A stretch of DNA of 56,545 nucleotides from Acytostelium subglobosum (Eukaryota), in assembly GCF_000787575.1 (NCBI RefSeq), contig NW_012236516.1, forward strand, positions 342,535 through 399,079, in the 5' to 3' direction. A model generated the notes under the pieces. The model had not been told where the DNA came from. It made no database searches and saw only the letters and a list, made by a program, of their open reading frames with translations. Made by a program: the position numbers and the translations under genes. This document shows, in pieces, positions 25,695-50,306 of the stretch; the first letter of the stretch is position 1, and each line of letters starts with the position of its first letter.

Positions 25695-26715
25695 ATGGTA
25701 TGATTGATTATTATTATTAATTTGATTGAATGAATGATGACTAATACTATATTTTATAGACTTCGACAGCAGATGATGAGGGATTCACAGAGTACTTGTA
25801 CAAGATCTTGGTAGTTGGTGACATTGGCACTGGCAAGACCTCGATCATCAAGCGTTTCGTTCACAACATCTTCTCCATGCATTACAAATCAACTGTATGT
25901 GATCATTATTATAGTTTGTTGTTGCCTGCTCTAGCTTGACTACAACTTCAGCGAGCGGCGACACACACAAGTGAAGTGAAGAGTTTGAAGAAACATCACA
26001 CTAACACTCCAACGCACACTCCCACTCCCTCCCACACTCAATCAAACACAAACAAACAACCACAATCAAACAAAATCAATACTTTAGATTGGAGTAGACT
26101 TTGCCCTGAAGGTGATCAACTGGGACCCAAAGACAGAGGTGAGACTGCAGTTGTGGGATATCGCTGGTCAAGAGCGTTTCGGAAGCATGACCAGAGTATA
26201 CTATAAGGAGGCTGTCGGTGCCCTCATCACTTTCGACGTCACTCGTGCCAGCACTTTCGAGGCCGTCGCCAAGTGGAAGGCTGACATTGACTCCAAGGTC
26301 ACCATCGGTCCTGATGAGAGACCAATCCCAGTCGTTCTTTTGGCCAACAAGGTATGTTATAATAATAATACAATGGGATGGGATGGGATGTCGATTGCTT
26401 GTTCAGCAACTGACACATGTTGGTGTCATCACAATGACACATATCGATATATATATATAGTGCGATCTAGGAAAGGAAGGATTTATTAAGACTGCCAACG
26501 AGATGGATAAATATTGCAAGGATAACGGATTCATTGGCTGGTTCGAGACTAGTGCCAAGGAGAACTTGAACATTGAAAAGGCCTCTCGCTTCTTGGTCGA
26601 GCACATTCTCAAGATGGACATCAGAAGAAATCAACCACCAACAGAGGATAAGGGGAAGATAGACCTCTCCGACAAAACAACGCCACCTACCAGCGGTGGA
26701 TGCTGTAATAAATAA
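25695..26715 (+). CDS. RAB32: Rab32/Rab38-family small GTPase, 4 exons: 25695..25697 (ATG only), 25760..25894, 26088..26351, 26461..26715
   Basis: The spliced product is M|TSTADDEGFTEYLYKILVVGDIGTGKTSIIKRFVHNIFSMHYKST|IGVDFALKVINWDPKTEVRLQLWDIAGQERFGSMTRVYYKEAVGALITFDVTRASTFEAVAKWKADIDSKV..IPVVLLANK|CDLGKEGFIKTANEMDKYCKDNGFIGWFETSAKENLNIEKASRFLVEHIL...GGCCNK. The G1-G5 boxes are present and the C-terminal CC is a prenylation site. It matches Rab32 almost residue for residue. Donors are GTATGA/GTATGT and acceptors are TAG. Confidence 0.85.
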
Positions 26716-27843: not shown

Positions 27844-30800
27844 TTATTGGATGTGCGTCATCTTGCATCTGTCACCATATGTACACTTTCCACTTGCAAA
27901 GTATTTACATATCAGCTTGCTCTTGTTGTTGCTGCTGGACCTCTTGTTGTTGTTGGACGTTGGCGATGTTGTTGTCAGGGTAATAGCGGGAGTTGGTGGA
28001 TTTGGTGACGATGGACCTCTCATATGTGGTGGTCTGTAGGGCTGGCCAGGTGAGGAAGATGAGGAGGAGTAGGCGTCCGGCTGGTCCATGTAATATCCAC
28101 TTCCACTGCTACTACTGCTGCCACCGCCGTTGCTGTTGTATCCATCGTATGCGTTGCTTGATCTATAGTTGAAGTTAAAGGTGTGATTGTAGGGCGTGGG
28201 TTCGTGGCCATAGTAAAGTCCTTGATTGCCATAGACCAGGCTGTCGCGGTAGGACATTGGCTGTCGTATCTCGGGCACGGGATAGGTAGGGAGATAGTAG
28301 ATTGGTGGATTGACTTGGTATTGTCCGTTGGGCGAGTGGTGATTGTTGATGTTGTTGTTGCTGTCATTCCTGGGACTGAGAGGATACTTGGAGTTGATCT
28401 GTATCTCTGGGGATAGGAGCATGTTGGTCTGAGGTGACAGAGGTGTGTCGGAGGGAGAGAAGATGTCGATGTTGTAAGGAGAGTCGTCATCCTCTGTGTA
28501 CTGGCTGATTGGTGGAGAGTTGATCCTCTTGCCCTTCTTGCTCTCATACTCCTTCTTTGGCCTCTTCTCGGCGCCTGATCCGCGATGGTATCCCTTATTG
28601 ATCGAGTTTGATACCGAACGACGTAGCCATTCAATCAAGTCTGGAGTGAGTGGAGGTGTCACACCAATCTTTGAGAAGTATTCACTAATGATGGTGATGA
28701 TGGTTAGTTGATCAATTGATTAATTGATTGCTTGATTCATGGTAACACTTACTCCCATGTCTTGACAGCCTTGATATGTGTGACAGCCTTCTGAAGGTTG
28801 TCCCTGACATGTGGCAACGGTTTGCCAAAGAGTCGGTTGTATTGATCGCTGATGGAGTCTAGCGTGGAGCCTTCGGGACGAGCGACATGTTGGAGGAAGT
28901 AGACGTGGAACATGAGCAGACGGATGGACACAATCGACGTCTCAAATGCGATTGTTGGTCTGCTGGCGTCAAACACTGGATTGGGTTCAGTCGCACCGTA
29001 TGGAGCACTACGTCTGATTATCCACATTACGTTGCGATCAAAGTTCTCCTCCAGATAGGCGTTGGCCACTTCAGACCATTTGTAGTCAGAGACTGTCAGC
29101 AGCGGTAGGAACTCGCCCAATGCTGGTGTCTCCTTCTTGAATCGCTTGGCTGGTGTATGTATAAAGTCATAAATCTCCTTATTAATATCGATCAGCATGT
29201 CTGGATACCTCTTGACAAAGGCCAGGAATAATTGATGGAACAGGCAATATCCTTCCAAATGCTTGATTGAGGCTGGTTGATGGGGATTGCATAAGTTAGT
29301 TGAGTGATTGAGTGAGTGGCTGGCGACAATGACTTACCATGTAGGGTCTCATTCATGATGCAGACACATGCTGTGTTCATGGCAATACAGATGAATCGCT
29401 TGGCCAACTCTGGTCTGAATGAGTGTGCTTGCATGATCGCGGCCAAGGACGACTCCAACAAGTCCCATGCTCTAAGTCCATGTTGATGATTGATATCTGT
29501 TTGCGCCAGCGTGAGTGAATGAATGATTGAATGAAGTGGACAAGATAACTTACACAAGGGTAACCAATGAGTGAATGATTGTTTCCAAATGGATGACCTT
29601 ACACCCTGCTTGTAGGCCTCGAGTGATAGTAGGTCGTGTTGGGTCTTGATCTCATCAATCTTTGTGGATCTAGGAGTCTTGCTAACGATCTCGACACCAA
29701 TGCCCAATATGTCCTCTTTGTACGAAGATCGATTGTGGAAGCAGACCAACTCGGACTCGATGCTGTTGATGTAGTCCTGGAGCGAGGGGTCACTAGAGGG
29801 ATCCAAGAAAATCGCCAGCTGCTTGTCATTGTTGCCATTACCATTGCTATTGTTGTTGTTGTTGTTATTGTTGTTGATACTACTGCTGCTCTTGAGGTCG
29901 TTGCTGCTTACGCTGCTGCCACTGATCTGTGAGTTGGAGCCATTCAGTTGAGATGAGCTGTAGGACGTCTTGAGACTGGACGAGGCCACAATGCTCATGT
30001 CTGGCAGCTCAGGCCATGGTGCATCGGGTGCGTGAGGGCAGAGGTGGCACCTGAATGTTTTGGAGTTTTGGATTGCGTCTGGGATCTTGACGAGATAATC
30101 CTTGAGTGGCACGGCAGAGTCCTCGTCGTCGAGGGTGATCAGGAATGTCTGGATCTGCAGCAGGATCGTCTGCACACTGTATGCGGACGACCAGCCCGTT
30201 GCCTGTCCCTGGAAGAACGACTGGAAGTCACTTAAGATGTCCAGGCATATGCGTCCACCGTCGTGTACGTGTGGGTGCGGGAAAGGTGTGAGCAGGGTGC
30301 CGCTGGGCGGGATTGCTGGGTAGGTGGGAGGGAACTTGAGCTCAAGATGGAAGATACCTCCCTCAAATGGTGACCCATCAGGCGCGGCGATATTTGCGTG
30401 CCAAGTCAGCAAGTCTGAGGCGTCGACTGGCTCGGCCGACATTAAAGGGATCGGGTTCGTCTTGATAGCCTTGAGGTCTGCCATCAGCGTCTTCTTGGTG
30501 CCCTGCGAGATGGTGTGCACCGTGGCCAAGAAGCCCGTCGCCATGATGTTGATCTCTGAGTGATTGGATCGCAGGTTCTCGACGGCTGTCTCCGACGTCT
30601 TGTTGAGTCCCAGCACGAGGTCTCGCATACTCGACTGCTGTGAGTCGTTGAGTGTGCGCAGAGATTCATCCGTGACACGCTTGCAGCCATAAATGTTGAG
30701 ACGTTTGAGCAAGGGTAGCTGCACCAGCTTGGCCACGGACGCGTCGCTGACGTTCTCAGACATGGACAGGTCGATGTCCTGGAGGAATGGGCATTTTGTT

Positions 30801-33800
30801 TGCAGCGACGACAGCTCTGAGATCAGCTGGCACTTCTTCAAGTCAAGCACAGAGAGATGGTGCAGACGGGCGCTGATGTGATCGATCGAGATATCCGTGA
30901 GCAAGTGGCATCCGGCCAGCTGCAGCGTGTTGATCTTGGTGCAGCTAGTGACCAGTGTCTCGATCCAAGCATCGCTCATTGACTTGCAATAGCTGACGTT
31001 GATACTGGTTAGCTCGGGGCAGTGCTCCGCCAATATGGTGAATGTGGACGAGTCGAGCTGATCGACCAAGCTGAGATTGAGTATGGACAGACTGAGCGAA
31101 CGACTGAGTATGTCATTGAGTGTGCAGGGTGCGATCGAGAGACCGGCAATCTCAAATTGTGTGAGCTTGAGCTGCGCGGGTAGCGTCTTGGTGTCGATCT
31201 TTGGCGTGTGAGGCACAAGAGGCGAAGATGATGTGTTGGATCGCTTGAGGGGCTGGTCCGAGGGGACAATGGTGGCCGGCGTGGCCGTGTTGAATAAGAG
31301 ACGCTGTAACGTGTGGCACTGTGACAGGATGCTGATGACAGTGTCCAACGTGAGCGAGGTGAATGAGAAGTCCATCGATACGATGCGTGTGAAGTGTAAC
31401 TGCTGCGGTGTAATCAACTTGAGCTTGCAGTTGGCCACGTTGAGGTGGTGTATGACGTTGTTGGTCACGGGTGGCAGGTGGGAGATGCGGCAGTTGGATG
31501 TGTCCAGGCGTCTTAGCTGGGACAACACGCGCACAATCTCCATCACCGTCTCCTCCTGTATCAGATGACACCCGGCGATGTTGAGATGCTGTAGATTCTT
31601 GCAGTAACCCAGTGCTTGGATGCCATGCGACGAGACCAGTCTGCAGTTGGCGATCGACAAGTGACGCAGGTGAGGCATGAGTCGTGTGAATATCGTGACA
31701 GACTTGATGTCCGAGTGCGAGATATCGAGGCACTGCAGGCCGAATGAAAGGTTGTCGGTGGGGTTGTACATGTTGTTGATCTCGCGATCGTCAAGCTTGC
31801 AACCCTTGGCCACAATGCGAGTCAGGCGTTTGCATCGCTTGAGGAGGACGACAATGGCCAGCGTGGTGGCGCCCGTCTTGGCCATGTTGATGCTCTGGAG
31901 ATGTGGACATTGCGATGCAATCTTCTCAACGGCATCGTTGTCCAGCGAGTCGCAGTGGTCCACGTCCAGCTTCCTGAGCGAGTCGCCAATGTTCTTGAGC
32001 ATAGGCGCCAGACTGGCTGTGATCCTGGCCTGGTGGCTCAGGTTGAGGTGGTAGACCTGGTTGCTGTACGTCTTGGCCAGGTAGAGGTAGAAGTCCGCAG
32101 GGATGTACTGGGCAAAGTGTTTGATGTGGATGGTGGGCACTGGCAGCAGCTCGGGGAACGAGAGAGACTGGGTGGTGGGGTGCAGCTCGGGCGCCTTGAC
32201 AAACAGGTGTGCCCATGTGGCGATCTGGTCGCTGGGGCGGGAGAGTATGGACTCGGGCACAGGGAACTTGGCCCATAGGTGGCTGTCCTGAATGATGATC
32301 TTGAATGCCTCCTTGAAGAAGTCACCGCAACGATTAAACACGAATGAGTCGTTGCAGTTGAGTGACTTGGTCATCAACAGCGAGCCAAGCCGCAGGTATG
32401 CAGTGCAGCGAATGTCGTCGCCCAGACGTGGGATGGCCGAGCGACGTGTGATTAGCTCGACCTTTGAGGTGGCCAGTACATTGTTGGCGGTCTGTGAGTC
32501 CCATTGGCCAACGGATTGATAGCAGCGCTCAGCCAACAATGAGATACTGTCTCGCGATGTCCACAAACTGCCTTGCTCATTGAGATACAAAGAGTGTAGC
32601 AGATCGCCCAGTTGTAGCAACGACATGTAGTTGTTGGCCAAAAGGAAGTTGGAATATGATCGTTCCAAGTATCCCAAACAGTCGTCCTTTCCAACGCTGA
32701 GTGCCAACTGCTTCAACACATTAGCGTAATCATTGAGGATATCCTTGTTATCTGGAGTTGATCTAATCGCATCCTCAAACTTATTCGTCGCCAGCTTGAA
32801 CAATCGTTCGCTTCCTGTCTTGCCCTCCCATCTATCATTGATTGAACGAGTGTATGTATGTTAGTGAGTCATGTCCATGCCATATCTTGTCCACGCCACA
32901 GTACATACTTCATGCATTGAAGCGAGAGTGCATTGCCCTCTGCCAAACTGATGATGTTCATGTGCTTGACCTTGACATCCATGCTTGTGATGTCAGAAAG
33001 CACCACTCTGAATGACTTGGGGTCGTCCCTCATCTCGTCCATCGACTCATCCGCAAGCTTGATTCCAGTCATGTTCTGTATCCTCACAAAGATGTAATAG
33101 ATATCCACATGAGTGCTCAGGTCAACATAAGGGTCTCGCTCTGTGAGTGAGCGTGTAAGTATGAGTTCAGTCTATACCAGTCATTGCTCGTGCATGCGAC
33201 ACGTTACCATTTGGGAATAGCGAGTTATCGAATCGACGAAGGATCTCATGCTTGATGTCTTGGAACCAGAGCTTCTCGTGTTGGTGCGTTGGATCGCCGA
33301 GGATGACGTTGAAGAAGTCCATGACAACTTGGATGTAGGAGTCGGCCTCAATCGACTTGAGCTCCTTCATCTTCTTGCGTAGATCCTCTCTGATGATGTT
33401 CTTAAAGACTCGCGCAACAATCTCGGTGAGCAGGATGCGCTTGAGAGTTGGGTCGGTCACATGCTGACGCACAATGCCTAGGTAGCGCACGTTGATGCCC
33501 TCGCGATGTATGATCTCTGTCAGATGCTGATACCACTGCACCTCCTTGACATGTGCGTCCATCCAGCGGGCAACCGTGGGGATGCATGTATTGAACAGGT
33601 GCTTAGTGGCTTCGAGCACCTCCTGATTGTTCACGGACATAGACACGGCGTCCACCTTGCCAAAGGGCGAGTAGGCGTCGCTGCTCAGTGGCGTGTGATA
33701 GGTCTGCACAAACTCGGGTCGGAACAGGCGGTACAAGAATGCCTCGTCCACATGGCTGTCGGCAGTGGGTGGGAAGACACGTGCAAAGTCCAACACGTAG

Positions 33801-35470
33801 AAAAGGTCGTCGCGACCAATGTGGCCCTCAATGTCGGTGGGACCATATAGGAACTCCTTGCGCTCGCCAATTCCACAGAGATGGCCCTTGATGTTCAGCT
33901 TCTCAGCCGCGGCCTTCATGCGGTCAAACACTTCGCCGCGTGCCGCCACCACGCTCTTGCCACCGTCCGCGCTACCATAGACAATGGTCTTCTTTGGCAC
34001 GATTGGCAGAATGGACATGGCCACCAGTCTGAAGCCACGATAGTCCAGCAGCGCCATCAGTGGCACGTGAATGCCCTCGCAACCATAGTAACGCATGACG
34101 GACTTGAGCTCGTGGCCGCCCGCCTTCATTGAGAACTCGTCGTTGCCATAGATCTTGATCCAGTCGGAAGCGAACTTGAACAGAATGCCATTGTAGACGT
34201 ACTTCTCGCCTCCAGCCTGTCCACCAAGACTGGGCACGGACATGATGGTCTTGAAGCGCGTGTCAATGAATGCCTCCTCAATGATGATCTTGCCATATGT
34301 GATCGCAGCGTGCAAGAAGTCCTTGCTGAGCGAGGACAGATGCTTGTACTTGACGTACTTCTTGTCGAGGTCGTCCTCGGGCAGCAGCAGCAGTCGTTGG
34401 AACTTCTCGTTCCACCCAATGCCCAGGCCATACTTGCCGCCCACGTCGGGTGTGATTGAGGCAGTGGTCGAAGAGGGTCCATTGTCATAGTTGGTCGATG
34501 TCTGTGACAGGCCTCCGAGGGCCGCCGCTGCCGCTGCCGCGCTTCGCTCATTCTTTAGTCGCTCATTAATATACATCTCTTGGCTTGATATTGATTTGAT
34601 CGCTGGGGCGTTGCCATAGCTGCTGTAGGCATCAACATTGTCATAGCTTGATGTTGACGTTGATGTTGATGTTGTTGATGATGTCGTGGTAGCTTGCTTG
34701 GCCTTGAGATGAGCCACCGCAGCAGTGAACTGTGCGGAAGTGTCCTCATCATTGTGTTCGTTCAATGAGAGCGTCGATACCAAGGTCTCGAGCTTGACAG
34801 CGGGTTGTAGGTGTGATGGAGATGGCGTGTCTATTCGATCGGAGGAGAAGTATATACCCTGCTCCTGAAATGATGGTAGTGAGCCTTCTAAGCCCTCCGA
34901 GCCATCTGAGCCAGCACCATCATTGATACCATGTCTTGTTGTTTGTGTTTGTATTTGTGTCGTCGTTGTCGATGTAGTGGATGTTTGTGTTTGTGTTGTA
35001 GTAGTCGAAGTCGATGTGGAGTTCACCGTCTGCAAAGATGGTGATTGATCAAGTTGTGCAATAGGTTCATTCTTTACAATTGGTATAGCCACCTGTTGCT
35101 GTTGCTGCCTGTATCCCTTGCCACCCTTCTTTGTTATATAGCCTGGATGTTTGGGACTATTATTATTCGATGAAGGTGTAGATGATGAGGTTGGTGTAGT
35201 AGCTGTATTTGTTATGTATGATGATGCTGTTGATGATGGAGTCTTCTTCTTCTTCTTTGATTTAGATGATACATAAGGTGTGATGACTTCATCACTACCC
35301 TGCTGCTGTTGTTGTTGTTGTTGATCTATATTAACATTGTTGTTGTTGTTGTTGACAGTTATAACGTCATCACCATCGCTACCATCATTACTATCATTGA
35401 TAAGATGATAGAATATATACTTGATCACTCTTATAAAATGGATGTATATATACAATGACACAAAGTACAT
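27844..35470 (-). CDS. Very large composite gene on the minus strand: Ser/Thr-rich N-terminus, CLU (clustered mitochondria) central domain, CLU C-terminal region, F-box-type cysteine-containing LRRs, a UBC (E2) catalytic domain and a terminal CCCH zinc finger. Inferred exons: 35470..33176, 33140..32909, 32831..29346, 29274..28753, 28694..27844.
   Basis: ORF 33167-35470 contains GWNEKFQRLL..LLDYRGFRLVAMSILPIVPKKTIVYGSADGGKSVV..EGHIGRDDLFYVLDFARVFPP..EGINVRYLGIV, which matches CLUH DWNEELQ..VVDYRGYRVTAQSIIPGIL..GNDGRHYILDLLRTFPP..RGINMRYLG. Exon B reads ...NMTGIKLADES..VVLSDITSMDVKVKHMNIISLAEG.., which parallels CLUH ..LKTGIQVLLKEY..VLNIFPVVKHVNPKASDA. Exon C (ORF 29192-32803) carries CPHLQSINMAKTG..LRHLSIANCRLVSSHGIQALGYCKNLQHLNIAGCHLI.. 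(LRR_cc) and then ..LMADLKAIKTNPIPLMSAEPVDASDLLTWHANIAAPDGSPFEGGIFHLELKFPPTYPAIPP..FPHPHVHDGGRICLDILS (a UBC fold, with the active-site Cys codon at 30245-30247). The last exon ends KLICKYFASGKCTYGDRCKMTH, a CX7CX5CX3H finger. Exon joins: GTATGT..TAG (77 nt), GTAAGT..CAG (71 nt), GTAAGT..TAG (58 nt). The CLU to exon B join needs a 35-nt GTATAG..CAG segment; see the finding on that span. Confidence 0.55.
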
Positions 35471-35673
35471 TATGTATGTGTGTCTGTTGTTGTTGTTGTA
35501 TTAAGATTATATTATATATATAAGTACTCGATCGATCAATCAATCAAAGTGAATACGCGATGACACACAAACAAGATAAATGAGGGAGTCAAAGTGAAGG
35601 TGATCTTGTCAAGGGGCACGTCCAAGAGGCACGTTTTTCATTTATGGGTTCACGTCACGCCACGTCAACTCGG

Positions 35674-38600
35674 TTAAGTGGAAGTGCGAGATGTCTCCTT
35701 GATATGCGCCAGTCTTTGACGCAGTGATGCAACAGTCGCTGAAAGGTCCTGCGTGCTCTCGCCTCCACCTACTCCTCCAGTGCCAGTACCAGCACCACCA
35801 ATTCCAGCTCCACTAACAGTCGTCCTACGACCTCCAGTCATGTTGAGTGATGTTGATGATGATGTTGAAGTGGTTGTTGGTGCAGTTGGTAATGTCATCA
35901 TCGTGTCGTTGTTTGTAGTCACATCTTGTCCACTGGCATACTTGTTTCGAAGTCTATTCAATGTGTTCAGTGCCATTGTGGCGGTAAGTTGATTGCTTTC
36001 ATCGCCATATGACTCGCCCAGACTGTTCTCACGATGAGCCTTTCTCTGTATCTCGCGAAGTCGTTCCATGTAGTCCACCTCTGGTGGTTCGGGCACGTTG
36101 GAGCGTGCATGCTCCCTCTCAGTGGCAATCTTTGTCAGACTTCGATGTATGTATGCCTGGAAGGGACCTGTCGACCTGTTGATGTGTGGACTGACGTCGT
36201 AGTCTGGGAACTGTTTCTTGAAGTAATGGAGGTCGTAGAGACCTTCGGTGGTCTCATCGCGCGAGCCCACCTTGCGGAAGATCTTTATCGCCAGCTGTCT
36301 CTTCTCATCGTCATTGGCGGCAGAGTAGTTGCGCGGCTCCTTGTTGACGGTGGAGCGTTGCTCTTCCAGCGTGGACGTGCCACTCCTAGATGATATGTCA
36401 CTCAGCGTAGGGATGGTGATGTTGTCCTGCTTCAAGATATCCGGTGTATTCAAGGGTGCCACACCCAACTGCGCAATGTCCAGGAACTCTGCACTGTCCC
36501 CAAGACTCTTGTGCGACTTGGGCTGAGGCTGGGCTTGTTGATCCTTCACAGCGACAAGCTTGTCAAAGGCCTGCTTGCCACCGAGTAGATTGGCCAACAG
36601 TGCAAAGAGGTTGGTGTGCTTGGAGGCTTGCTGTGCAGAGTTGATTCGCTTGCAGAATGCCACGACATCGGATTGATTGAGAGTGACGATGTCTTGTGTG
36701 AGTCTCTCGGCAGCCTTCTTGAATGTATCGTCGATCTCTCCATTCTGATATTGAAGCAGCGTGCCTACCTCTTGCAAGATGGCCGACACATCCATCTCGA
36801 TTGGCGAGCCCGCTTGCGCTGCCTCCTTGAGTGGCTTGGAAGCGCGCTGCATGCATTTGAGCAGCAAGTCCTTGTACTTGGGCGACACCTGCTTCTGATT
36901 GGGCGCGCTCACCTTTGTCATCATCTGGAGCAACGCGCTCAACAGCGTCGTGTTGTTGCTGTTCTGGAGTGTACGCAACAGTACTTGGTTCAGTGCCTTG
37001 TTGATCCAGTTCAGGTCCTCCTGGTTCTGGCCGGCCGCTCCAGCGGTGTGACCCACCAGCAGACGGATCGACTCGGACAGCACGGTCTGCAGCGCCACCA
37101 CCGAGGTACGCTTGGCTATGAACTCGTTCGAGTAGATCGTCACGATCGTGTGTATCAGATATTTACAGAGGCGGAAGATCGTCTGGTCGTTGGTGACCTG
37201 CGGGAAGATGCTCAGCAGGATGTTAGTGAGGTTGAGCAGATACTGCTCGCTAAAGTACAGGAACTTCTCGGCGAATGACTGTGAGTTGGCCAGATAGTTG
37301 GACAGATGCTTGAGGTACTCGACCACTGTGTCGAACGTCTCGTCTGTGTAGTTGGTGAGCACATTGAGGTACTCTTGTATCTTGAGCGTCTCCTCGTCGT
37401 CGGGAGGGCGTTGCAGTGCCTGCTGTGTCGACGGCACCTTTGAGCTTCCAGCTGTGCTTGGCGAGCTGACTGACGAGCTGCCAAACATGCCTTGGAGTGT
37501 CTGTCGATCGGCAGCCGATATGTTGCCAATGTGCTTCCAGATGTCGTCGCCAATGTGACTGTACAGTTGTGTGAGTGTGTTGGCCGCCGCTTGTTTGGCG
37601 GTGGGCTCGCGGTCTGCCAATGACTTGGCGACGATGGATATAACGCTCTTGATGTTGTTACCACACACTGCCGCGCCATGCTGATTGATCAGACTGCCCA
37701 GATCTGAGATGCATTCGAATCGCGTCCTCCAGTTGGAGGTCTTGGCGGTGACTTCCAACGTGTACTTGAACAGTGAGTTGGGCTGCGTCACCTCGGCCAG
37801 CTCCTTGTACGCCTGCTTGAGTGTCTGCTTGAAAGTCTCGTTGGTCGTGCCCATCTTCTCGGTGACGACCGGCAGTATGCAGCCGGCCTCGTAGTCGCTG
37901 ATGAAGTACTCGACAGCCTTCATGCGCTGGGCGATCGTCTCGAGCAGCGACAGTGTCCTCTTGAGCGAAGTCAAGCCAACGTCAAACAGCTTGAATGAGC
38001 ACCATCTAAACACGATGTCGAGGACACTGATGAGAAGGTCGATGTTTCCGTCCTCCTGGGCGACGCTAGCCAGCATGTCCACGACCTGTTGTTGATGCGA
38101 CGAGTTGGCTGAGAACATCATGTTGGCAAACTCCTCGCTAAAGGTCGCGCCAACCTGTTCCTGGAGCTGCTCCTGTATCTCGTCTGTTTCCAAAAAGTGG
38201 AATGATTGAGTGGTGCTGCGTTGTCTGGTCGACTTGCCGTTGGGATCATTGATGATGAACTCGTCCGTTATCGAGGGGGACGAGGCGGCAGGCGGCTGCA
38301 GCGGTTGCGATGGCTGCAGTGGTTGCATCTTTTGTGGTGTTGTAGACGACGAGAATGAGCCACGTCGTGGTGTGACGGATGGTGATGGAGTTGGCGTTGT
38401 AATGCGGCTGCCAGTGGATGCTCGGGCCGGTGACTGAGCGCGGGCACTCAGCTTGGACGCGGCTGTGGCTGGGGCGGGAGCAGCAGCACCAGCGCCCTTC
38501 TTTCCATAGTATCTGTCAATGACCGCTTGTATAGCTGTCTGGTTCGTGGGTTTGACCTCACGCATCTCCTTCTTGATCACATCGCCTGGAACACTGGCAC

Positions 38601-41600
38601 TGATGGCGGCCAGCAGCTGCTCCGAGTTGGATCGTATCTCAACGTTCTTGTCCTGCAGGCATGTGATGATTGGTTTGATAAGCTGTGGCAGATCAGTCTG
38701 AGTCTTGACCGCTGCGATATTGGACAGTATCCAAACGAGTCCTTCCTTGCGACTTGTGGCTGATTCCTGAGTGAGCAGCGTGGCGATGGGCGACACGAAC
38801 ATGTCGACGCCCAGCTCCTGTGACAAAAAGTTCATTGAGGCCAATGCAGCATCGCGCAGTTGCTTCTTGGAGTCGGCCAACAGCGAAACGATGCCGGGCA
38901 GTAATGTTCGGGTGGACTTCTCAATGGCGGGGCCAACCGAAGTGACCAACAGCGACACGAGTGTGAGCGATGTCGTGATCACCTTTTGGTTCTTGTCTGT
39001 GAGTGGGCCCTTGCCAATGCAGCTCATGAGTGTTCCAAGCTTGGGTTGTATCTTGAGGTTGGCATCGATCAGTATGCGCTCAATCTCCTCCAGGGCAGTC
39101 TGTCGCTGCTTCCAATCATTGTCCGAAAGATTGGCCAACAAGATGCTGTTGAACTTGGCGCCGACATCTGTGCGCGGCACCTCGCTTTCGACGCGTGGCT
39201 GACGCGATTGTGGTTGGGGTTGCATGTCCTTGACCTTGGCAAACTCCTTCTCGGTGGCGTCCAGTAGTTGTTTCTTGATGTCTGACAGGTAGTCGAGCAG
39301 GGCTGGTCCGATTGCGACGCGCAGCACACAGAGCACCTTGATGGCCGAGGTCTTGACGGGTGTGGACGACGACTCCATGCATCCCTTAATAAAGTCAAAG
39401 AGAGGTTTGAACAAGATCGAATTGACTCCAAACTCCTCGAGTGCCTGTGCCATCCACACAAGTGTCGACTCTGTGATCTTGGGGTTCTTGTTGCCTAGTG
39501 CGGCTGAGTACGCGAGTTGGAACACGGCCTCGGGTGCTAGAGCCTCGCACACCAGCATCAGTGTCTCTGTCGCCTTCTCCTTCAGCTTGACGTCGGTCAG
39601 CTTCTCCAACACTGCGCTGAGGAACAGTGACACTGTTGTCTTGGAGAATGATGTGTCTTGTGTTGCCAGCGCTCCAATGATGCCCAGGTGATTGTTGGTG
39701 ACCTGGAAGTTCACCTCCTTCCATCCTGGTTTCTCTTGCATGTAGCTGATCAAAGGCTCGGACATGCCTGCTCTGGCGCCATTGCTCACGGCCTCATATA
39801 TTGCCTCGGTGGCTTCGACTCTGTCCTTGAGGTTCTGGCTGTCCAGTCGCGAGAGTATATCTGATGGAATGACGTCTGACAACTTCTTGGCATACTCTTC
39901 CAATGATGAGATTGCTGGTGGTGGTGGCGCGGCAGCTCCAGTTGATGCTCGTGCTGCGGGCTTGCCGCCAGCTCCCTTCTTGCCATCCTCCTCCGCGGCC
40001 ACGGGTGCCTCGACGGCGACCGGTGCAGGGGCTGTGGGCATCAAATCCTTGATCTTCTTCAGCTTGATGGCATCCAGTTGATTGAAGTATGGTGCCATGC
40101 CACGCTCACCAATGACGTTTGCCAGAACAGCAAATGTCTTGGCAGCACCATCACGAACTGCGCCATCAGTGTCGTTCAGGGTATCCATCAGCACCTTGGC
40201 CAGTTGCTTGGCAACCTTGACGACATCCTGTGGCTTCTTGGTTGTGGACATTGTCTTGTGCATGAAGTTGAGCACTTCGATCTTGACCTGTGCCACCTTG
40301 GAGCCCAGCATCGTGGTCAAATCCTCGACCATGTCAGGCAGTGACAGGGTTCTCGTGATGATCTGTTCCATTGTGACGTGTATCGCTGGCACCACCTGTG
40401 GCTTCTTCTCTTTGTAGCGCTCCATGATTGGCACGAGGAATTGCTTGACCTGTGATGTGTACTGTGTGCGAAGGCCCTCGCAAAGCAGACCGACAGCCAC
40501 AATGGCCTTGGTGACAATCATGACGTTTGTGTCGGCCAGTGTCTTCTTGAGAGTTCGTGACAACTCATTAAAGTCGCCATTCTCAATCTTTGGAGATGAC
40601 TGCAGTATCTCCACCAACTTGTCAATCTGTGCCTGTCGCTCCTGCCACTTCTTTGCCTCCATGCCCTCATAGAACTCCCCAGTGATCTTGTTCAATATAT
40701 TTACAGCGTCGATCATTGAGTAAGGATCGATCTCCTCTACTTCTACAACTTCTGGTTCTGTTTGGCGTTAGGGAATGGATGGAGAGGGGAGGGCGGCGGC
40801 AGGGTAACTTACTTATTCCTTTGGCGGCCTGAGCTTGGGCCTTGGCAGCCTCACTCCTCATGTATTTGAGTGGGATGGCAGGGTCGTTTGGTAACTTCTC
40901 GAATGTCTCATTGAGTGCCTTGAGTTGAAGTGCTGTCAGACTGTCGAGCAGAGGTAACAACGCCTGCTTCATCCATCTATATATCTCGACAATGAGTGCC
41001 ATCGCTTCATCTCTGATTGCCTTGTCTCGATGCTCGAACCATGGTTGGAACTGCTTCAATATCGACTTGACCGGTATGACCTTTGGTCCAAACGTCCTAT
41101 CGTGAGCACGCGATTAGTGATTGATTGATTGATTGAATGAACGCGAACATACTTCAAAGCCTCTCTTAGACCGATCAATGAAGCTGTCATGACTTTGGGT
41201 GAGCTGTTGGTCGTGCCCTTGAGCAAACTGTCGACTACGGCCTCGGGTGAGTCTGCTTCGATTGTAGCGAGCAATACTTCTATGGTCTTGTCCTTGACCT
41301 TGGGTCTTGTCGATGAGAAACACTTCTCGACCAATATAGGCGCGAATGACGGGGCAAACACCTTGACCGTGTCGCAACGATCAATGAATGTTGCCAACGT
41401 CTCCAACACCTTCTCCTGTACCATCGGGTTGATATCAGCCAAGTACTTCTTGAAGTTGTGGCCTATGTCAATGCCAGTGTCAATGTCAGTGTCTTGCCTT
41501 CATCATCACAACACATGACACTACATACCATGATCATTGTATAGTGCACCAGTTGACTCGAATGAGTTCTTATACTTTGTTGTCAACTCTTCGAATCCAC

Positions 41601-42583: not shown

Positions 42584-45500
42584 ATGAAACTATTGGACAA
42601 TATACTTTGTTTCGTCGATGGCACTGGAGCATCATTCAAGGACAAGAAGGTCATCCAGGACCTCATCATAGCCAACGGTGGTAAATCAACTACTTTGTTG
42701 AACCAAAAGGTATGCATCACCAATGGTGGAACTATCCCATCATCACTCATTCATCAACTAACTCAACTGAATCAATCAATCAAACAAAGGTATCATACTA
42801 CATATGTTGTGCAAATGACTTGAACATGCTATCCAAGTCAAATGCATCACATGAACAGGAACAACCACAACAACAGGATGACAATGACAATGATGATGAA
42901 GATGAGGATGATGATGGTGGACAACAGGTGAGAGGTAGCATCTACTTGGACTCATTATCATACAATGTACGCAAGGCTATAAAGTTGAACATACCTATTA
43001 TGACACGCCAGTTCATCGACGACTCGGTCTCGGCTGGCTTCTTGCTCTCCACCGACCAGTACCAACTGGTGTCGCTATACAACATCAAGGAGCATCACTA
43101 CCAGTCCTACGACTTTGGCGCGCTGCTCGACGACGGCGCAAGCAGCAGCAAACAGACATCACTGGAGCAACGCAAGCGCGTGCCATACAAGCCGGCCGAG
43201 CCGGCCGCCGACGCGCCTCCATTCCCTGAGGATCGCTATCACATCGTCAAGTACAACGTGCTGCAGTGGACGCAGCAGAAGCGCTTCGTGTGTCTGGAGC
43301 TGCATGTGGGCGGCGGCGCCATGGGACTCATTCAGGTGGGCACTGACAGCGGAGCTCGCGAGGCTTCGTCTGGCGGCGACCAGGAGCAATCATTCTACCG
43401 TGTGTTCATCAATCATGGCTCAACAGACAACATCCCAGCGAGCACTCGCGAGTGGACTCCCGTGCCCAGCATTGAGGATGGACTCGTGTTGTACAATCAG
43501 CTCTTCCTGCAATACATGTCGCAGCCCTATCAGAAGTTCCTGATGACATCGATCAACATTGGCTCTGACCGCCTGCGTCAGCAGGCCACGTCGGTGGCCG
43601 CCACTCAGTCGTTGCTGCCCGACTCTGTACAGAAATTGGTCAAGCTGCTCTACGACGAGGCAATCACGACACTGGGCACCAAGCTGGGCGGCGCCCGCCA
43701 GGTCAACCTCACGCCCGAGGGCACGCTGCAGACCGGTGTGGGCACGATCGCTCTTCCCCAGCTCGAGAAGGCAGAGTTCAGTCTCTTCCAGATAGCCAAC
43801 GCAGTGCGCGGCGACCTCGCGCAGATATCCAGCGCCACAGTGGTCGGCCTGTTCAAGGAGTTCTTCAGTGCACTGCCCCAGGCGCGCCCCGCCGGCAACT
43901 TCACCCACAACATCGAGCTGCTTCAGGACATGCAGGACCTGGTGCAGCTGATGAAGGATATTCTTAACGTCGGTGAGTCGCTCGGACTCTCCTCGCAGAG
44001 CAACAACGTGACAGACACACGCTATCGCGCCATGCGCTGTGACATCCGGCCAATGGACACCACGACCAAGCAGTACAAGAAGCTCACCGATCAGATCATG
44101 TCGTCTGCCAAGCATCTGATGACCATCAAGAACATCTACCAAGTGACGCGTCGCGAAGAAGAGAACCATGTCTTCCCACATCAAAACGTCAAGACACTCT
44201 ACCATGGCAGTAGACCCAGCAACATCCTCGGTATCATGAGTCGTGGACTGCTCACACCCAAGTTGTCCACCACCCTAGGTGCATCCAGGCGTGATGTCGG
44301 TTACCTTGGATCAGGTATCTACTTTGGAACAAAGGCTGCAACAAGGTATGTTTGATTGATTGAGTGATTAAGTGAATGATTGAATGAGCACATACTGACC
44401 AACTACTCCTTAGCTTCCAATACTGTGATGGCCAAGCAACATCGACTTCAAGGTTCATGTTGGTGTGCCAGGTAGCACTTGGCGCAACAAAGAAGTATAC
44501 TTCGCATCAGAGTCATTTGGTCGAGCCACCAAAGGGCTTTAACAGTGTACAGGGTGTGGCCAAAGACAACAACAATGGCTCAGTGTTCACAGATGATGAG
44601 ATGGTCGTGTTCGATCCCAAGCAACAAGTGCTGCAATACCTGGTCGAGTTCCAGGCCATCGACAACAGCTTCAAGACTGCCAACAGCAACATCTCTTCGC
44701 TCAACATGCAGAGCAAACAGGATGCAGCTACATCATCATCAGTCATTGACACTGATGTCGTGCCAAGTGTCGTGCCAGCGTCCAACGCAAAGGATGAGAA
44801 AGAGGAGGTCAAGGAGTCGGGACTCATTGGTGGCGGCGTGGCCATCCCTCTTCAATCAGTGCACGTTCGCGCCAAGCTTCTGGATCTCGTTGGCGAGGTG
44901 GTACTCTACCAACACTACAAGAACGACTCGTCCAAGGCTATCGAGGCCAAGTACGTGTTCCCTCTGGATGAGATGGGCGCAGTCTGTGGCTTCGAAGCAT
45001 ACATAAATGGCAAGCACATCATTGGTGAGGTCAAGGAGAAGGAGCAAGCTCACCGCGAGTACAAACAGGCCATCTCCGAGGGCCATGGCGCCTACCTCAT
45101 GGACGAGGAGAAGCCCGACGTGTTCACTGTGAGCGTTGGCAACCTTCCGCCACAGGCTGAGGTGCTCATCAAGATCACCTACATCACCGAGCTCTCGATT
45201 GACGGCCTGGACATCAGCTTTGTGCTGCCATCCTCAATCTCACCCGCCCAGCGCAGTCTGAGTGCGGCCCAGGTCACCCAAACCACCACTTCTACCGTCA
45301 AGGTGGACAGCGACGCCACCTCCAAGCTTTCGATCCAAGTCGGCGTGGAGATGCCTTACAACATCGTCAAGTTGGTGTCGCCATCTCATGAGATTCGCTG
45401 CAAGAAGACACACACCAAGGCCACCGTGGAGCTGGCCAGCGGCGAGTCCAGCCTTGGAAAGAACTTCCAATTGTTGGTCGGTCTGGAGGACCCGTACAGC

Positions 45501-48500
45501 CCGAGAATGTGGGTCGAGGTCGACGGCACAGGTCATCACGCATCAATGTTGGCATTCTATCCCAAGTTGGACATTGACGCGGACCGCGACACCCCCACCA
45601 ACCTCACCTTCCTCGTTGATCTCTCGGCATCGATGCGTGGCGATCCCTTCCAGGACATGCTTCGTGCACTCCGTCTGGCAATCGCCAATCTCCGTGGACT
45701 AAATGTGCGCTTCAACATCGTGCAATTTGGTGACGTTTTCGACTGGCTGTTCGTGGACAACGTGGCACCAACCGAGGAGAACCTTCAACTGGCATGGAGC
45801 CACATCAATTCGCTCAACGCCAGCTATGGAGGCACTCAGCTGCAGCAGCCCCTCCAATCACTGCTGCTTCTGTCCGAACAGTGCAAGCCAAGCAACCCCA
45901 ACAACATCTTGTTGTTCACCGATGGCAACGTGTCGAATGAACGCATGATCCAGCAGTTGGTCAAGCGCGCGTCCGCACACTGTCGTGTCTTCTGTTTTGG
46001 AATTGGAGAGAACGTCAGTCGCCACTTTGTCAAGTCGATCGCGCGTCTCGGCGCCGGCTTTGCCGAGTTTGTCACACCAAACAAGCGACCCAACCCCAAG
46101 AAGGTGATCGCCCAGCTGCAGAGGACTGTGGCGCCAGCCATGTCCAACGTGCGCGTGGTCTTTGACTCGACCGACAAGATCGTCCAGTCACCCAACACCA
46201 TCACATCGATCTTCAAGAGCGAGCGCCAGGTCGTTTATGCATTCAGCGGCCTGTGTACACGTGCCACACTTTCTGCACAGGCTCCTGGTGGAGGCCTCAT
46301 CAGCAACACGGTGCACACTCCCGAGATCGGTTTCCTTCGCGGCAACCTCATTCACAGATTGGCCGCGCGCTCAATGATCCGCGAGTACAACGACGGCACA
46401 TATGCCGAGTCCAAGTTGCAGCACGACTTGATCAAGCTCAAGAAGAAGGAGGACGTCATCAAGCTCTCGATCCAATATAGCATCGTCACTCAGTTCACAT
46501 CATTCGTGGCAATCGAGAAGCGTGAGAAGAACGAGGTCGTACGAAAGGATATCCCGCCCCTACAGGAGATCGTCGACCAGTTCGTGGTGGACGCGCTGCC
46601 CTACATCCCCTACGAAGATCGCTCGAGTGGCGACGGCGTCGATGCCGGCGACTCCACCCTAGTGTCGAAGCGTGAGCAACTCTTGCGCACCATGGAGTCG
46701 TACAAGTCTGGCGGCAACCACGCCGACTCTGTGCGCGTGCTCCATCAGATCGCCGACACTTATGGCGATTATAACCGCGATGAATTGAGACTGTTGTCCG
46801 AGACGGTCAGCTCGCTGACCACAAAGAACCAGGACGTGGCCTTTGGCCAAGGCTCTTCGACACCATCCAAGACCATGACACCCCTGGCCCTATCAAGAGC
46901 CAAGCGCGAGAAACAAAAGGCCATGGATGAGATCAAATACAACTCACTCTCACTTCTGCGTCTGGTCGAGGCAAGCTTGCCCAAGTGCGCAACCGAGGAA
47001 CAAAAGGTGGCTATTCTAGACGAGCAGGCCAAGATCTACGCGACACTCGCTCGTTGCGAGTCCAACGACACTGCTAAGCAACATCTCCTCAGCCAGACCA
47101 AGGGCGCGCTCAAGGATGCCTTGGCAAGAGCCGAGAAGAGTCTTCCTCCCAACAGCCCAGTACGCTTGAAGCTTGCCTACAACGCAGCCCAGGCCTACAG
47201 AGACATGGGCGAGCACGACCTCGCGTCCAACCTGGCCAAGAACGCGTTTGACAATGCAATCTCAGAGTTGGACTGTCTCTCCGAGGACTCCTACACTGAG
47301 ACCACTCTCTGGATGCAGTTGATCAGGGACGACCTGACCTTGGCCTCTGAGCAAATGGATCTCCAGCAACAGTACAAGACACCCACCAAGGGCAAGGTCA
47401 CCGAGGTACACGCAGTCGATGACAAACCAGCCCAAGTGGTGGTCAATCGCTGGGCTGGACTAGGTGGTGTCTCGGTTGACAAGTTGATTGTGTCACCTGT
47501 TGCCAAGCCCCAGGAGAAGATCCTGGATGGTAGAAACTGGGCCGATATCTCCGACAGCAGCTCGGACGAGGATGATGGACATGATGCCACAGAGGTGTAT
47601 CTCGGTCGCCAAGAAAGCGACTCTGATAAGAGATCACGCGATAGAGACAGGGAGAGGAGCAGAGGCTACAGCGAGCGAGGTGGAGACAGAGACAGAGTGT
47701 CCACAGGTAGCCAAGGCCTCAAGAACATGGGAGGCAGAGGCGGAGGCGGAGGCAGAGGAGGTGCCGCTGCAAGTGGATTTGGCAGAGGAGGAAACAGATC
47801 AGTGTCCAACTCTGGCGAGAACGATAGGAGTGTCTTGCCTCAACAGGTGCGATACATGGATACCCGCGATGAAGATATGAAGAAGGTCGTCAGCGAAAAG
47901 AGCGCCGTACCACTAATGTCAGGAATGCGATACATGTCAAAGCGCGCTGATGAGATGGAGAGAGCCCCAGCCAAGATGCAAGAGATGGAGAAGCAGATGA
48001 ACGTACTAAAGTTAGAGAAGGAGCTTGAGTCGGCCAGGAAGTCACTTATGCCACTTAGGGCTCAGCAAGAGGTTGCCATGCCTCTTCCAGAGCCAATTGT
48101 CATGGCAAAGAGCCTGAACAGACTATCGTGGTCCTCCTCAGTCAGCACCTCATCTGAGGAGAGTATTGTCACACCCTATGAGGTCCAATCTTTGGACGAC
48201 TCCATCCGATCATCCCGAGGCGAAAAGGCCGATATGAAGGAGAAGAAGTCAGTTCGTGGCAAGAAGATGGCCAAGGACACTCAAGATAGTTGGGGCTCCG
48301 GTGACTCGGATATGTCGTTCTTCTCGAGTCCCCAATCACCACCTCCACCATCATCAGGAAGCTATGCACCGCCACCACCCCCACCCAGCGCCCCAGTCGC
48401 CCCTCCAAAGCCATCCTCCGCCCCAACACTCGCAGGCAAGATGGCTCCGCCACCACCATGGACTACGACCCAGACCGCTGCGCCACCCATGCCAGGAGCA

Positions 48501-50306
48501 CCTCGCCGCTCCGCGGCTGGACCACCACCCCCGGTTGCATTTGGTCAATCATCGAGCTTTGGTGCTCCACAACCACAGGCAGCCGCAGCACCGATGGCTT
48601 CGTTTGGCGCTCTCAAGAAGGTAGCGTCGCCACCAACCAATGCATTTGGATTTGATGGCACTAGTGGTGCAGGTGCCTCTCCCACCAACAGCTTGTTCTC
48701 TTCATTCTTTGGCGGTGCCCCTACGACGACCCCAACAATCGCTCCTACCACCGTATCCACGTCCACCTCAGCATCATTGTTTGGAAGCACCTCCTCTGGA
48801 AAATCATTCTCATTTGGAGGAATGCCACAACAACAGCAACAGCAGCAACAGCAACAGCAGACGTTTGGCTCCGCGGTGTTCAATGCTCCTCCACCACCTC
48901 CTCCTGCAGCCCACCAGGCACTCGAGAAGTTTGAGCGAGAGGCCACACCATTGTCCTCGTCATCTTCAAGCATGTCTTCCCTATTCAGCTTTGCAAAGGA
49001 GGGTTTGGCCAAGGTGTCCAACTCACTCCTGAGTAAGGGAGGCAAGGCTGCTGAAGCCCCCCTCAGCAAGACAAGCTCCAACAACAACAACAACAACAAC
49101 AACAACATTGTTGACAATGGATCAACCTTGAATGACAGCCTGGGTGAGCTGAAGGAGTACAGTAGAAGGAGGATGGCTAGGCCCGCTACTGTCACCCCTG
49201 TTGCCAAACCAGCACCACCTCCACCCAAGGAGGAACCCAAGCAAGACCTTCTCCAATCTTTACTCAGTCGCAGATCAGTAGTATATGAGGAAGATGAGGA
49301 AGAGGGTGAGGACTGGGGCGACAATGACGATGAGGACTGGGACGCACCAGCACAGAGTTACGACGACGGTATCGCCAACGAGATGGCCAGGTTCAAGAAG
49401 GAAATCAGCACCCAGAATGATGAATTGAATATGCTGTTGTGTGACCTTACACCTGCAGCTGCTGCGGCAGCCCCCATGGAGAGGGCACCATTAAAACTGG
49501 TAACCAGGAGCATCGAGCGAAGCGAAGAGGACATGGGATTCGATCTCTTTGGCGGCGATTATGACGCCCCCGCGCCAGTCATGGCCGCTGCAGCTCCCAA
49601 GCAACTGGCACCGGCCAAGGATTACTCTGCAAAGAAATCGTCATTTTCAGCCAAGATGGAAGAGAAGGAGGAATCTGATGGCGATGACATGGGATTCGGT
49701 TTATTTGACAGTGACGAGCGCATCATGACCGAGAGCGTGAAGGCCAAGCCAATGCCAGCCCCAAAGCCATCTCCCAAGCGACCAACATCATCATTGGTTC
49801 GCGGTGAGCTCATGCAAGAACTGAGAGCTCCAGAGGCCTCAGCAGGCGAGTCCGTTCGTTCTGCCTTTGCCTACAAGTGGTCAATTGATCAGAAGCCACC
49901 AGCAGACTCATCGGACGGAAAGAAGAAGAGCAAGCGCAAGTCCGTGAGCATGTCCAAAGAGTTGGCACCCGAGGCAAGCTACCCAGCAAAGCCAATCGTG
50001 GATGGCATCAGAAGCATACTTGGCGCGAGAAAGAGTTTCAATGCTGATGATGTTGCAGTGTTGGCATTGCTTGGTGTTCAAAGCGACTCGCACGTGGTCA
50101 ACTGCAAGAGCTTCATGAAGACAACATTGATTCTGGAGTTGGTACTCCTGTTCCTACGTCTGCTTCTACAGCCAGCCACAGACTCTGGTGAGTTGCTCAT
50201 TCTCTTGGAGAAATACAACTCGATCCGCCCCTCGATGAACAAGGCCAACCCTGCCTACCAATGTCTGCTCAGAGGATCAGCGAGCCATCTTATCAAGAAG
50301 CTCTAA
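42584..50306 (+). CDS. Vault poly(ADP-ribose) polymerase (PARP4/vPARP-like). Domain order is BRCT, PARP regulatory plus catalytic (H-Y-E), VIT, vWA, then a long low-complexity tail. 3 exons: 42584..42709, 42790..44345, 44414..50306.
   Basis: Exon 1 and the start of exon 2 form a BRCT-like domain (ILCFVDGTGASFKDKKVIQDLIIANGGKSTTLLNQK|VSYYICCANDL). The catalytic part reads TLYHGSRPSNILGIMSRGLL..YLGSGIYFGTKAATS|SFQYCDGQATSTSRFMLVCQVALG..PKGFNSVQGVAK..FTDDEMVVFDPKQQVLQYLVEF, the PARP signature with His-Gly-Ser, a Tyr and the catalytic Glu. VIT reads GGVAIPLQSVHVRAKLLDLVGEVVLYQHYKN..EAKYVFPLDEMGAVCGFEAYINGKHIIGEVKEKEQAHREYK. vWA reads LTFLVDLSASMRGDPFQDMLRALRLAI..FNIVQFGDVF. Introns are 80 and 68 nt with GTATGC/GTATGT donors. 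Confidence 0.85.

Follow-up and report, generated by a model that had tools for sequence, protein, structure and literature searches.

The window analysed here, a stretch of 56,545 nucleotides (nt) from Acytostelium subglobosum contig NW_012236516.1, carries on its minus strand, between positions 35470 and 27844, a six-exon gene in which a CLU module, leucine-rich repeats (LRRs), the core of a ubiquitin-conjugating enzyme (UBC, E2) and a CCCH zinc finger are joined in one long protein. On balance, we favor the view that this product of about 2,430 amino acids (aa) belongs to a conserved amoebozoan family of giant ubiquitin enzymes and would be a self-contained ubiquitin-conjugating and ubiquitin-ligating (E2–E3) enzyme. 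The initial annotation of the locus had proposed five exons and about 2,450 aa; a single minus-strand gene was indeed found, with the count revised to six exons and 2,430 aa.

From the N-terminus, the protein consists of a low-complexity region, the CLU central domain with the eIF3_p135 region, a helical region, a solenoid of cysteine-type LRRs, the UBC core with its Cys and an HPH motif, a CxxCxH knuckle, a flexible low-complexity linker, a domain of 340 aa resembling the hemiRING–UZI module of UBR4, and a disordered tail ending in the CCCH finger.

Gene structure and orthologues

At the level of sequence, the fusion is confirmed as real, a single gene with the order CLU–LRR–UBC–CCCH. The LRRs, the UBC core and the start of the C-terminal domain (CTD) share one exon, homologues unite CLU, eIF3_p135, LRR and UQ_con domains in one protein, and conservation is colinear over aa 340–2200. 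The orthologue of Synstelium polycarpum is 57% identical at 93% coverage. Homologues combining CLU, eIF3_p135, LRR and UQ_con were also found in a EukProt species, Planoprotostelium fungivorum (PROFUN_13876), Pelomyxa schiedti and several metagenomic organisms. Trinity transcripts of Clastostelium recurvatum and Mastigella eilhardi contain complete open reading frames (ORFs) running from CLU through UBC. Moreover, two relatives known from genomes or metagenomes, P0009 (locus L001, 7071 nt) and P0010 (GCA_041447075.1, 7044 nt) encode the whole protein with no introns. As these genes are as long as their products, and L001 is one uninterrupted ORF, the fusion does not depend on any assumption about splicing. 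The fusion status of relatives had been named as a check on the architecture, and these colinear orthologues and intron-free 7-kb ORFs answer it in favor of the fusion.

The orthologues held in databases (Planoprotostelium PROFUN_13876, Synstelium EP01133_P013661 and a Pelomyxa protein named 'Histidine kinase A') show the same CLU–LRR–UBC–CTD order at 30–57% identity. They carry automatic annotations only; in some of the models the sequence is truncated, or the CCCH finger or the active site is missing. Homologue searches returned no orthologue from Dictyostelium, Heterostelium, Cavenderia or Tieghemostelium.

Between 35470 and 27844 the minus strand holds ORFs of 767, 1203, 169 and 272 aa; at about 47% GC content, those of 767, 1203 and 272 aa cannot have arisen by chance. 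The ORFs were joined through GT–AG introns and the conceptual protein was compared with ten homologues. In the final model the introns measure 67, 77, 57, 65 and 68 nt, and the 2,430 codons contain zero internal stops. All five junctions are GT–AG, phase-consistent and spanned by unbroken alignment to the ten homologues. The coordinates given below for this gene all refer to the minus strand.

Exon 1 (33208–35470; aa 1–754) opens with the ATG at 35468–35470 and encodes the low-complexity N-terminus, the CLU domain and the start of the eIF3_p135 region. The first 340 or so residues are rich in S, T, N and Q, of low complexity and unconserved, which leaves the position of the true start codon uncertain. 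An alternative first exon, in which the ATG would be followed by an intron at 35467, was ruled out, since the resulting frame runs into a stop codon. Upstream, the stop codon of an XMAP215/TOG gene (35674–40716, minus strand) lies only 203 nt (35471–35673) from the ATG, and the terminator of the TOG gene must therefore share that space with the promoter and 5' untranslated region of the CLU–LRR–UBC gene.

Intron 1 (33141–33207; 67 nt, GTAACG..CAG, phase 1) was at first placed at 33141–33175. With the donor at 33207, the junction reads FDNSLFPN/ERDP, colinear with FDNSLTIE-ERDP of Synstelium. The short form of 35–37 nt also keeps the frame but retains ten residues without counterpart in any homologue. 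The 67-nt intron was preferred because only the longer form gives colinearity with all ten homologues across the junction. Exon 2 (32909–33140; aa 755–831) is a conserved continuation of the CLU C-terminal region, with 78–98% identity to the Synstelium orthologue in this stretch. Intron 2 (32832–32908; 77 nt, GTATGT..ACTAAC..TAG) was kept as originally drawn, and its junction, LQCMKW/EGKTGSERLF, agrees with homologue P0001.

Exon 3 (29554–32831; aa 832–1924) encodes the helical region, the LRRs, the UBC core, the CxxCxH motif, the low-complexity linker and the start of the CTD. The 1203-aa ORF to which it belongs had been described as uninterrupted. It conceals intron 3 (29497–29553; GTAAGT..ACAG), an in-frame and stop-free intron of 57 nt whose 19 codons are missing from all ten homologues (alignment A1). 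This is the sole insertion past aa 340 that is missing from the three closest homologues compared, and its removal brings back the family consensus HWLPLYINxxHG (HWLPLYINHQHG). Given such a hidden intron, the long ORFs of this genome are not safely read as single exons.

Exon 4 (29338–29496; aa 1925–1977) and exon 5 (28753–29272; aa 1978–2150) are separated by intron 4 (29273–29337; 65 nt, GTAAGT..ACTAAC..CAG), with the junction MNETLH/ASIKHLEGYC. Intron 5 (28685–28752; 68 nt, GTAAGT..ACTAAC..TAG), with the junction VKTW/DEYFSKIG, leads into exon 6 (27844–28684; aa 2151–2430), which holds the end of the CTD, the disordered tail, the CCCH finger and the TAA stop codon at 27844–27846. Introns had been predicted at 29275–29345 and 28695–28752; both exist, with edges corrected by a few bases. 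They are phase-consistent ahead of the CCCH exon, as had been claimed, and both junctions agree with the homologues.

Domains of the predicted protein

Domains were assigned by Pfam scans of the full 2,430-aa model and of pieces of it. The UBC core (30116–30487; aa 1614–1737) matched UQ_con with E = 1.6e-27 and 96 bits against a cutoff of 27. Compared with solved E2 structures it gave E values of 1e-19 to 1e-21, the best being Ubc7/UBE2G and UBE2N. In these alignments Cys1694 (codon 30245–30247), in the sequence RICLDIL, falls at the catalytic Cys position of Ubc7 and UBE2N, in keeping with the complete UBC fold and catalytic Cys read from the sequence earlier. The HPN triad is missing; HPH (30269–30277 here) takes its place in all scanned CLU–LRR–UBC members that keep the segment. 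HPH, the Cys and the Trp of a GW pair are invariant in 13 aligned family sequences, and a variable insertion lies beside the active site. One annotated orthologue, P0005 (Planoprotostelium PROFUN_13876), is without the HPH–Cys segment, which is probably a gene-model error caused by a mis-called intron and not a true loss.

The HPH motif has been called unique to the Ube2w family, and its second His has been argued to be able to play the role of the Asn (PMC4630614). The UBE2W family (PDB 2MT6; PMC4630614) shares HPH ahead of the catalytic Cys with the present UBC, whereas identity between the two is 30% and the insertion loop that follows the active site here does not occur in UBE2W. Relatives in the wider family of proteins combining UBC and CTD keep the canonical HPN. 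Membership of the UBE2W family, as suggested by HPH, was ruled out by the 30% identity and by HPN in these relatives, and for the same reasons the HPH of this protein probably arose independently.

Directly after the UBC core, the motif FxCxxCxHxPxxPWP (30011–30055; aa 1758–1772) forms a candidate zinc knuckle. Across the family alignment C, C and H never vary, and the motif recurs in the consensus of the wider UBC–CTD family; it may bind zinc.

The CTD (28579–29782; aa 1849–2186), which spans introns 3–5, occupies about 340 aa between the UBC core and the tail and is conserved to the same degree as the UBC. It matched no Pfam family at E ≤ 1, E3_UbLigase_R4 included. Its structure was modelled with AlphaFold2 (AF2) on the 72%-identical Synstelium segment, using a 27-sequence alignment; the P0009 segment was also modelled. 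The Synstelium model (predicted local distance difference test, pLDDT, 95; predicted template-modelling score, pTM, 0.92) consists of a helical bundle preceded by a small beta subdomain. In a Foldseek search, its sole significant matches were 8b5w and 8btl_A, the UBR4 module, with E of about 4e-5, probability 1.00 and a TM score of 0.62. The match aligns 288 of 340 residues and covers both the hemiRING-like beta subdomain and the UZI helices, at an identity of only 12–14%. The fold of the CTD is accordingly predicted to be of the UBR4 hemiRING–UZI type.

In the UBR4 module, a hemiRING with a single zinc (C2HC) binds UBE2A/B, and a UZI subdomain of 11 helices modestly activates ubiquitin-charged E2 (E2~Ub); UZI is otherwise known only from UBR1–3 (PMC10873205). 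The zinc site of UBR4 is formed by C4838, C4841, H4887 and C4890. Four to five invariant Cys and His residues are candidate ligands in the present protein, namely those of the CxxCxH knuckle and two in the beta subdomain, a Cys at the domain's start and the INxxHG His. They would suffice for a site of C2HC type. Compared with the UBR4 module (PDB 8B5W, 8BTL; PMC10873205), the candidate ligands are arranged otherwise, with CxxCxH ahead of the linker and then one Cys and one His. UBR4 recruits UBE2A/B in trans, while here the E2 is in the same chain. In addition, a UBR box (zf-UBR, PF02207) was not matched at E ≤ 0.1 in the full model, unlike in UBR-box N-recognins. An E2 on a CLU/LRR scaffold had been proposed for this locus. 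The E2 stands, the 340 or so residues after it had been missed, and their predicted UBR4-type fold moves the reading to an E2 fused with an E3-like module.

The N-terminal half contains the CLU central domain (PF13236; 33764–34414; aa 353–569; E = 1.4e-57) and a partial match to the eIF3_p135, or CLU C-terminal, region (PF12807; 33272–33529; aa 648–733; E = 2.5e-12), both as anticipated. CLU_N and TPR were not matched at E ≤ 0.1 in the full model. Orthology to CluA/CLUH was ruled out, as both are missing; canonical TPR-bearing CLU proteins also rank far beneath LRR-bearing paralogues among the homologues. By these comparisons the CLU part is a CLU-domain paralogue distinct from CluA/CLUH. CluA/CLUH, CldA, CldB and ComB (PMC2906285) have the same succession of CLU central domain and eIF3_p135 region, but CLU_N and TPR are missing here and the rest of the protein is unrelated.

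Amoebozoan proteins found in the homologue search join the CLU module to SPRY, RCC1, UBR box or kinase domains, and fusions to SH2 in CldA and to Rab in ComB have been described (PMC2906285). The binding of mRNAs for mitochondrial proteins, invoked in the initial annotation, cannot be transferred from CluA/CLUH because the CLU part is paralogous, is without CLU_N and TPR, and is a module fused to many unrelated domains; that link is weak. Two other amoebozoan CLU and LRR proteins, P0037 and P0042 (PROFUN_03738), end in a UBR box (PF02207). CLU–LRR scaffolds are thus joined, in different paralogues, to two UBR-type ligase parts, either a UBR box or a UBC with a UZI-like module.

The cysteine-type LRRs (30557–32059; aa ~1090–1590), similar to those of FBXL and AMN1, were matched by Pfam LRR_4, LRR_6 and LRR_RPS2 over aa ~1199–1545. 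At least eight clear LxxLxLxxCxxL repeats are spaced 24–26 aa apart, and the homologues bear a precomputed LRR_FBXL15 annotation. The earlier description of LRRs of the type seen in F-box receptors fits these matches. FBXL-type substrate receptors share the cysteine LRRs with a period of about 25 aa, but an F-box is missing here: no F-box or F-box-like family was matched at E ≤ 0.1 in the full model, which ruled out membership of the F-box proteins.

The CCCH finger, CX7CX5CX3H (27853–27909; aa 2410–2428), lies two residues before the C-terminus, in the exon where it had been predicted. It scored 26.6 bits for zf-CCCH_4 (cutoff 24.6) on the last exon alone and 24.0 bits, a marginal score, when the whole protein was scanned (aa 2409–2425). 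P0008, P0010, P0143, P0162 and other distant family members likewise end in a CCCH finger. Profile models for CLU, eIF3_p135, LRR, UQ_con and zf-CCCH, which had been listed as a means of checking the architecture, were all matched, zf-CCCH only marginally in the whole protein.

Wider family, proposed mechanism and alternatives

An exhaustive HMMER search with the CTD profile retrieved 2,982 representative proteins at E ≤ 1e-3, 1,098 of them at E ≤ 1e-30. The unit of UBC and UBR4-like domain marks out a large protist family of about 3,000 representative clusters from Amoebozoa, Heterolobosea and Anaeramoeba. Domains were counted in 51 members sampled among the best 150 of the 2,982 matches. UQ_con was present in 36 of the 51; partner domains in the same sample included TerD (9), LRRs (6–7), zf-CCCH (4), S1 (3), RRM (3) and VWA (2). 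Amoebozoan members include Arcella, Pyxidicula, Pellita, Vannella, Planopodium, Protostelium and Acanthamoeba, and others come from Willaertia and Percolomonas (Heterolobosea) and from Anaeramoeba. The UBC–CTD gene of Acanthamoeba has no CLU or LRR coding in the 10 kb upstream. Since the sampled members vary in their partner domains and the Acanthamoeba unit lacks CLU–LRR, the conserved core of the family is UBC, knuckle and UBR4-like domain, and the N-terminal CLU–LRR part with the terminal CCCH is one lineage-specific set of additions.

For the Acytostelium protein we infer catalytic activity, activation in cis, zinc binding, choice of substrates and a connection to RNA. Ubiquitin would be loaded by E1 onto Cys1694. 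The tethered hemiRING–UZI-like domain would then contact E2~Ub and activate it in cis, in the way that the UBR4 module activates UBE2A in trans. Choice of substrates or of a cellular site may fall to the LRR and CLU modules, and the CCCH finger may take the enzyme to RNA or ribonucleoproteins (RNPs). The RNA connection is plausible because the terminal CCCH recurs in distant members and relatives carry S1, RRM or CCCH. A self-contained, mRNP-associated ubiquitin-conjugating machine had been envisaged for the locus; the single gene and its conserved domain order were upheld and the RNA link is plausible, while its basis in mitochondrial mRNAs was not upheld. The E2/E3 hybrids UBE2O and BIRC6 likewise place a UBC core inside a giant multidomain protein with its own substrate-binding regions, but they are without a RING-like module, CLU, LRR and CCCH. 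We advance more tentatively a bolder proposal, in which the UBC and hemiRING–UZI-like unit would be a natural self-activating single-chain E2–E3 ligase, an ancient and protist-wide sister of the UBR-family catalytic module, and the Acytostelium version would ubiquitinate substrates associated with RNPs or ribosomes.

Several observations weigh against an E2–E3 enzyme, and most of them bear on the CTD. Its link to UBR4 is structural only, with no sequence match from Pfam or HMMER; two CTD profiles run against PDB sequences at E ≤ 10 did not retrieve UBR4. The UBR4 zinc ligands (CxxC...HxxC) could not be placed residue by residue on the CTD. When UBC and CTD were modelled together by AF2 (pTM 0.65; pLDDT 63–78 in the knuckle and linker), their relative placement was not confidently fixed. 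In the sampled family, 16 of 51 members have an F-box-like domain, and in P0145 and P0153 an F-box stands directly upstream of the CTD, the usual position in a substrate receptor, so the CTD could be a binding domain and not an E2 activator. The order in P0153 is UBC-tail knuckle, F-box, CTD. The main rival takes up most of these points: the E2 would be real, the CTD would bind proteins or substrates or serve to dock another ligase such as SCF, and the likeness to UBR4 would reflect common fold ancestry only. We regard it as unlikely. The CTD is paired with a UBC in the majority of the sampled members, the invariant CxxCxH knuckle always goes with the UBC, and the structural match takes in the hemiRING-like subdomain together with the UZI helices.

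The active site raises a different objection, as catalysis might be changed or weakened by HPH in place of HPN. With the Asn swapped for His and a variable insertion beside the active site, the UBC could be a weak or inactive pseudo-E2, similar to the UEV proteins, and the protein a non-enzymatic scaffold or adaptor. Nevertheless, the aligned family sequences keep the active-site Cys and the His-Pro without exception, UBE2W and its fungal homologue are active with HPH (PMC4630614), and relatives in the wider family keep the canonical HPN; such a pseudo-E2 is thus improbable. Finally, the A. subglobosum gene was read from genomic sequence alone, and it is apparently missing from the public protein set of the species, in which the homologue search found no protein more than about 37% identical to the product. 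A model built from genomic DNA might have joined two neighbors, a CLU–LRR gene and a UBC/CCCH gene, and the Acanthamoeba locus indicates that the UBC–CTD unit can stand alone. Such an artefact is highly improbable, given that LRRs and UBC share one stop-free exon, that the whole protein occurs as single intron-free ORFs in L001 and GCA_041447075.1, that assembled transcripts of two other genera span all domains, and that the alignment is unbroken over every junction. An E2 fused to an E3-like module is accordingly the reading that we retain.

Significance and neighboring genes

A literature search found no publication on the CLU–LRR–UBC–CTD–CCCH architecture or on fusion of an E2 with a UBR4-like module; CldA/CldB were the only relevant result for the architecture. 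The architecture had not been recognised as a described one, and this still holds, with orthologues known only under automatic names. These orthologues are already in databases, and in kind the protein is related to the E2/E3 hybrids and to the UBR catalytic module. The catalytic module of UBR4 was defined only in 2023–24, as an atypical fold otherwise confined to UBR1–3. Here a domain with a fold of this type is predicted in permanent fusion with an E2, with interchangeable targeting domains as partners. If active, the protein would provide a compact natural E2–E3 system for dissecting hemiRING–UZI activation and an evolutionary context for the UBR catalytic module, and would point to an unstudied protist ubiquitination pathway that may be linked to RNA. 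For annotation, the case illustrates that a gene of this size is apparently absent from the public A. subglobosum set and that long ORFs of this genome can conceal in-frame introns.

The neighboring genes in the window include an exon of the largest subunit of RNA polymerase III (1393–4701, minus strand), 100% identical over aa 115–1184 to SAMD00019534_081510, which marks the window as DNA of A. subglobosum LB1. This exon, a response-regulator receiver ORF (11138–12529, minus strand) and a Ras/Rab-family exon (26112–26489, plus strand) are ordinary neighbors. Exact-sequence database matches were found for none of the window's TOG protein, PARP ORF and 722-aa ORF, nor for the RPC1 match. On the plus strand, at 42712–50306, the PARP catalytic ORF (42712–44355) continues through a GT..AG intron (~44347–44412) into an ORF of 1949 aa that encodes VIT and VWA domains, an order that resembles vault PARP (PARP4). 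The 1949-aa ORF further encodes a 14-3-3-like domain (E = 5e-21) together with an I/LWEQ fragment, an unusual combination.

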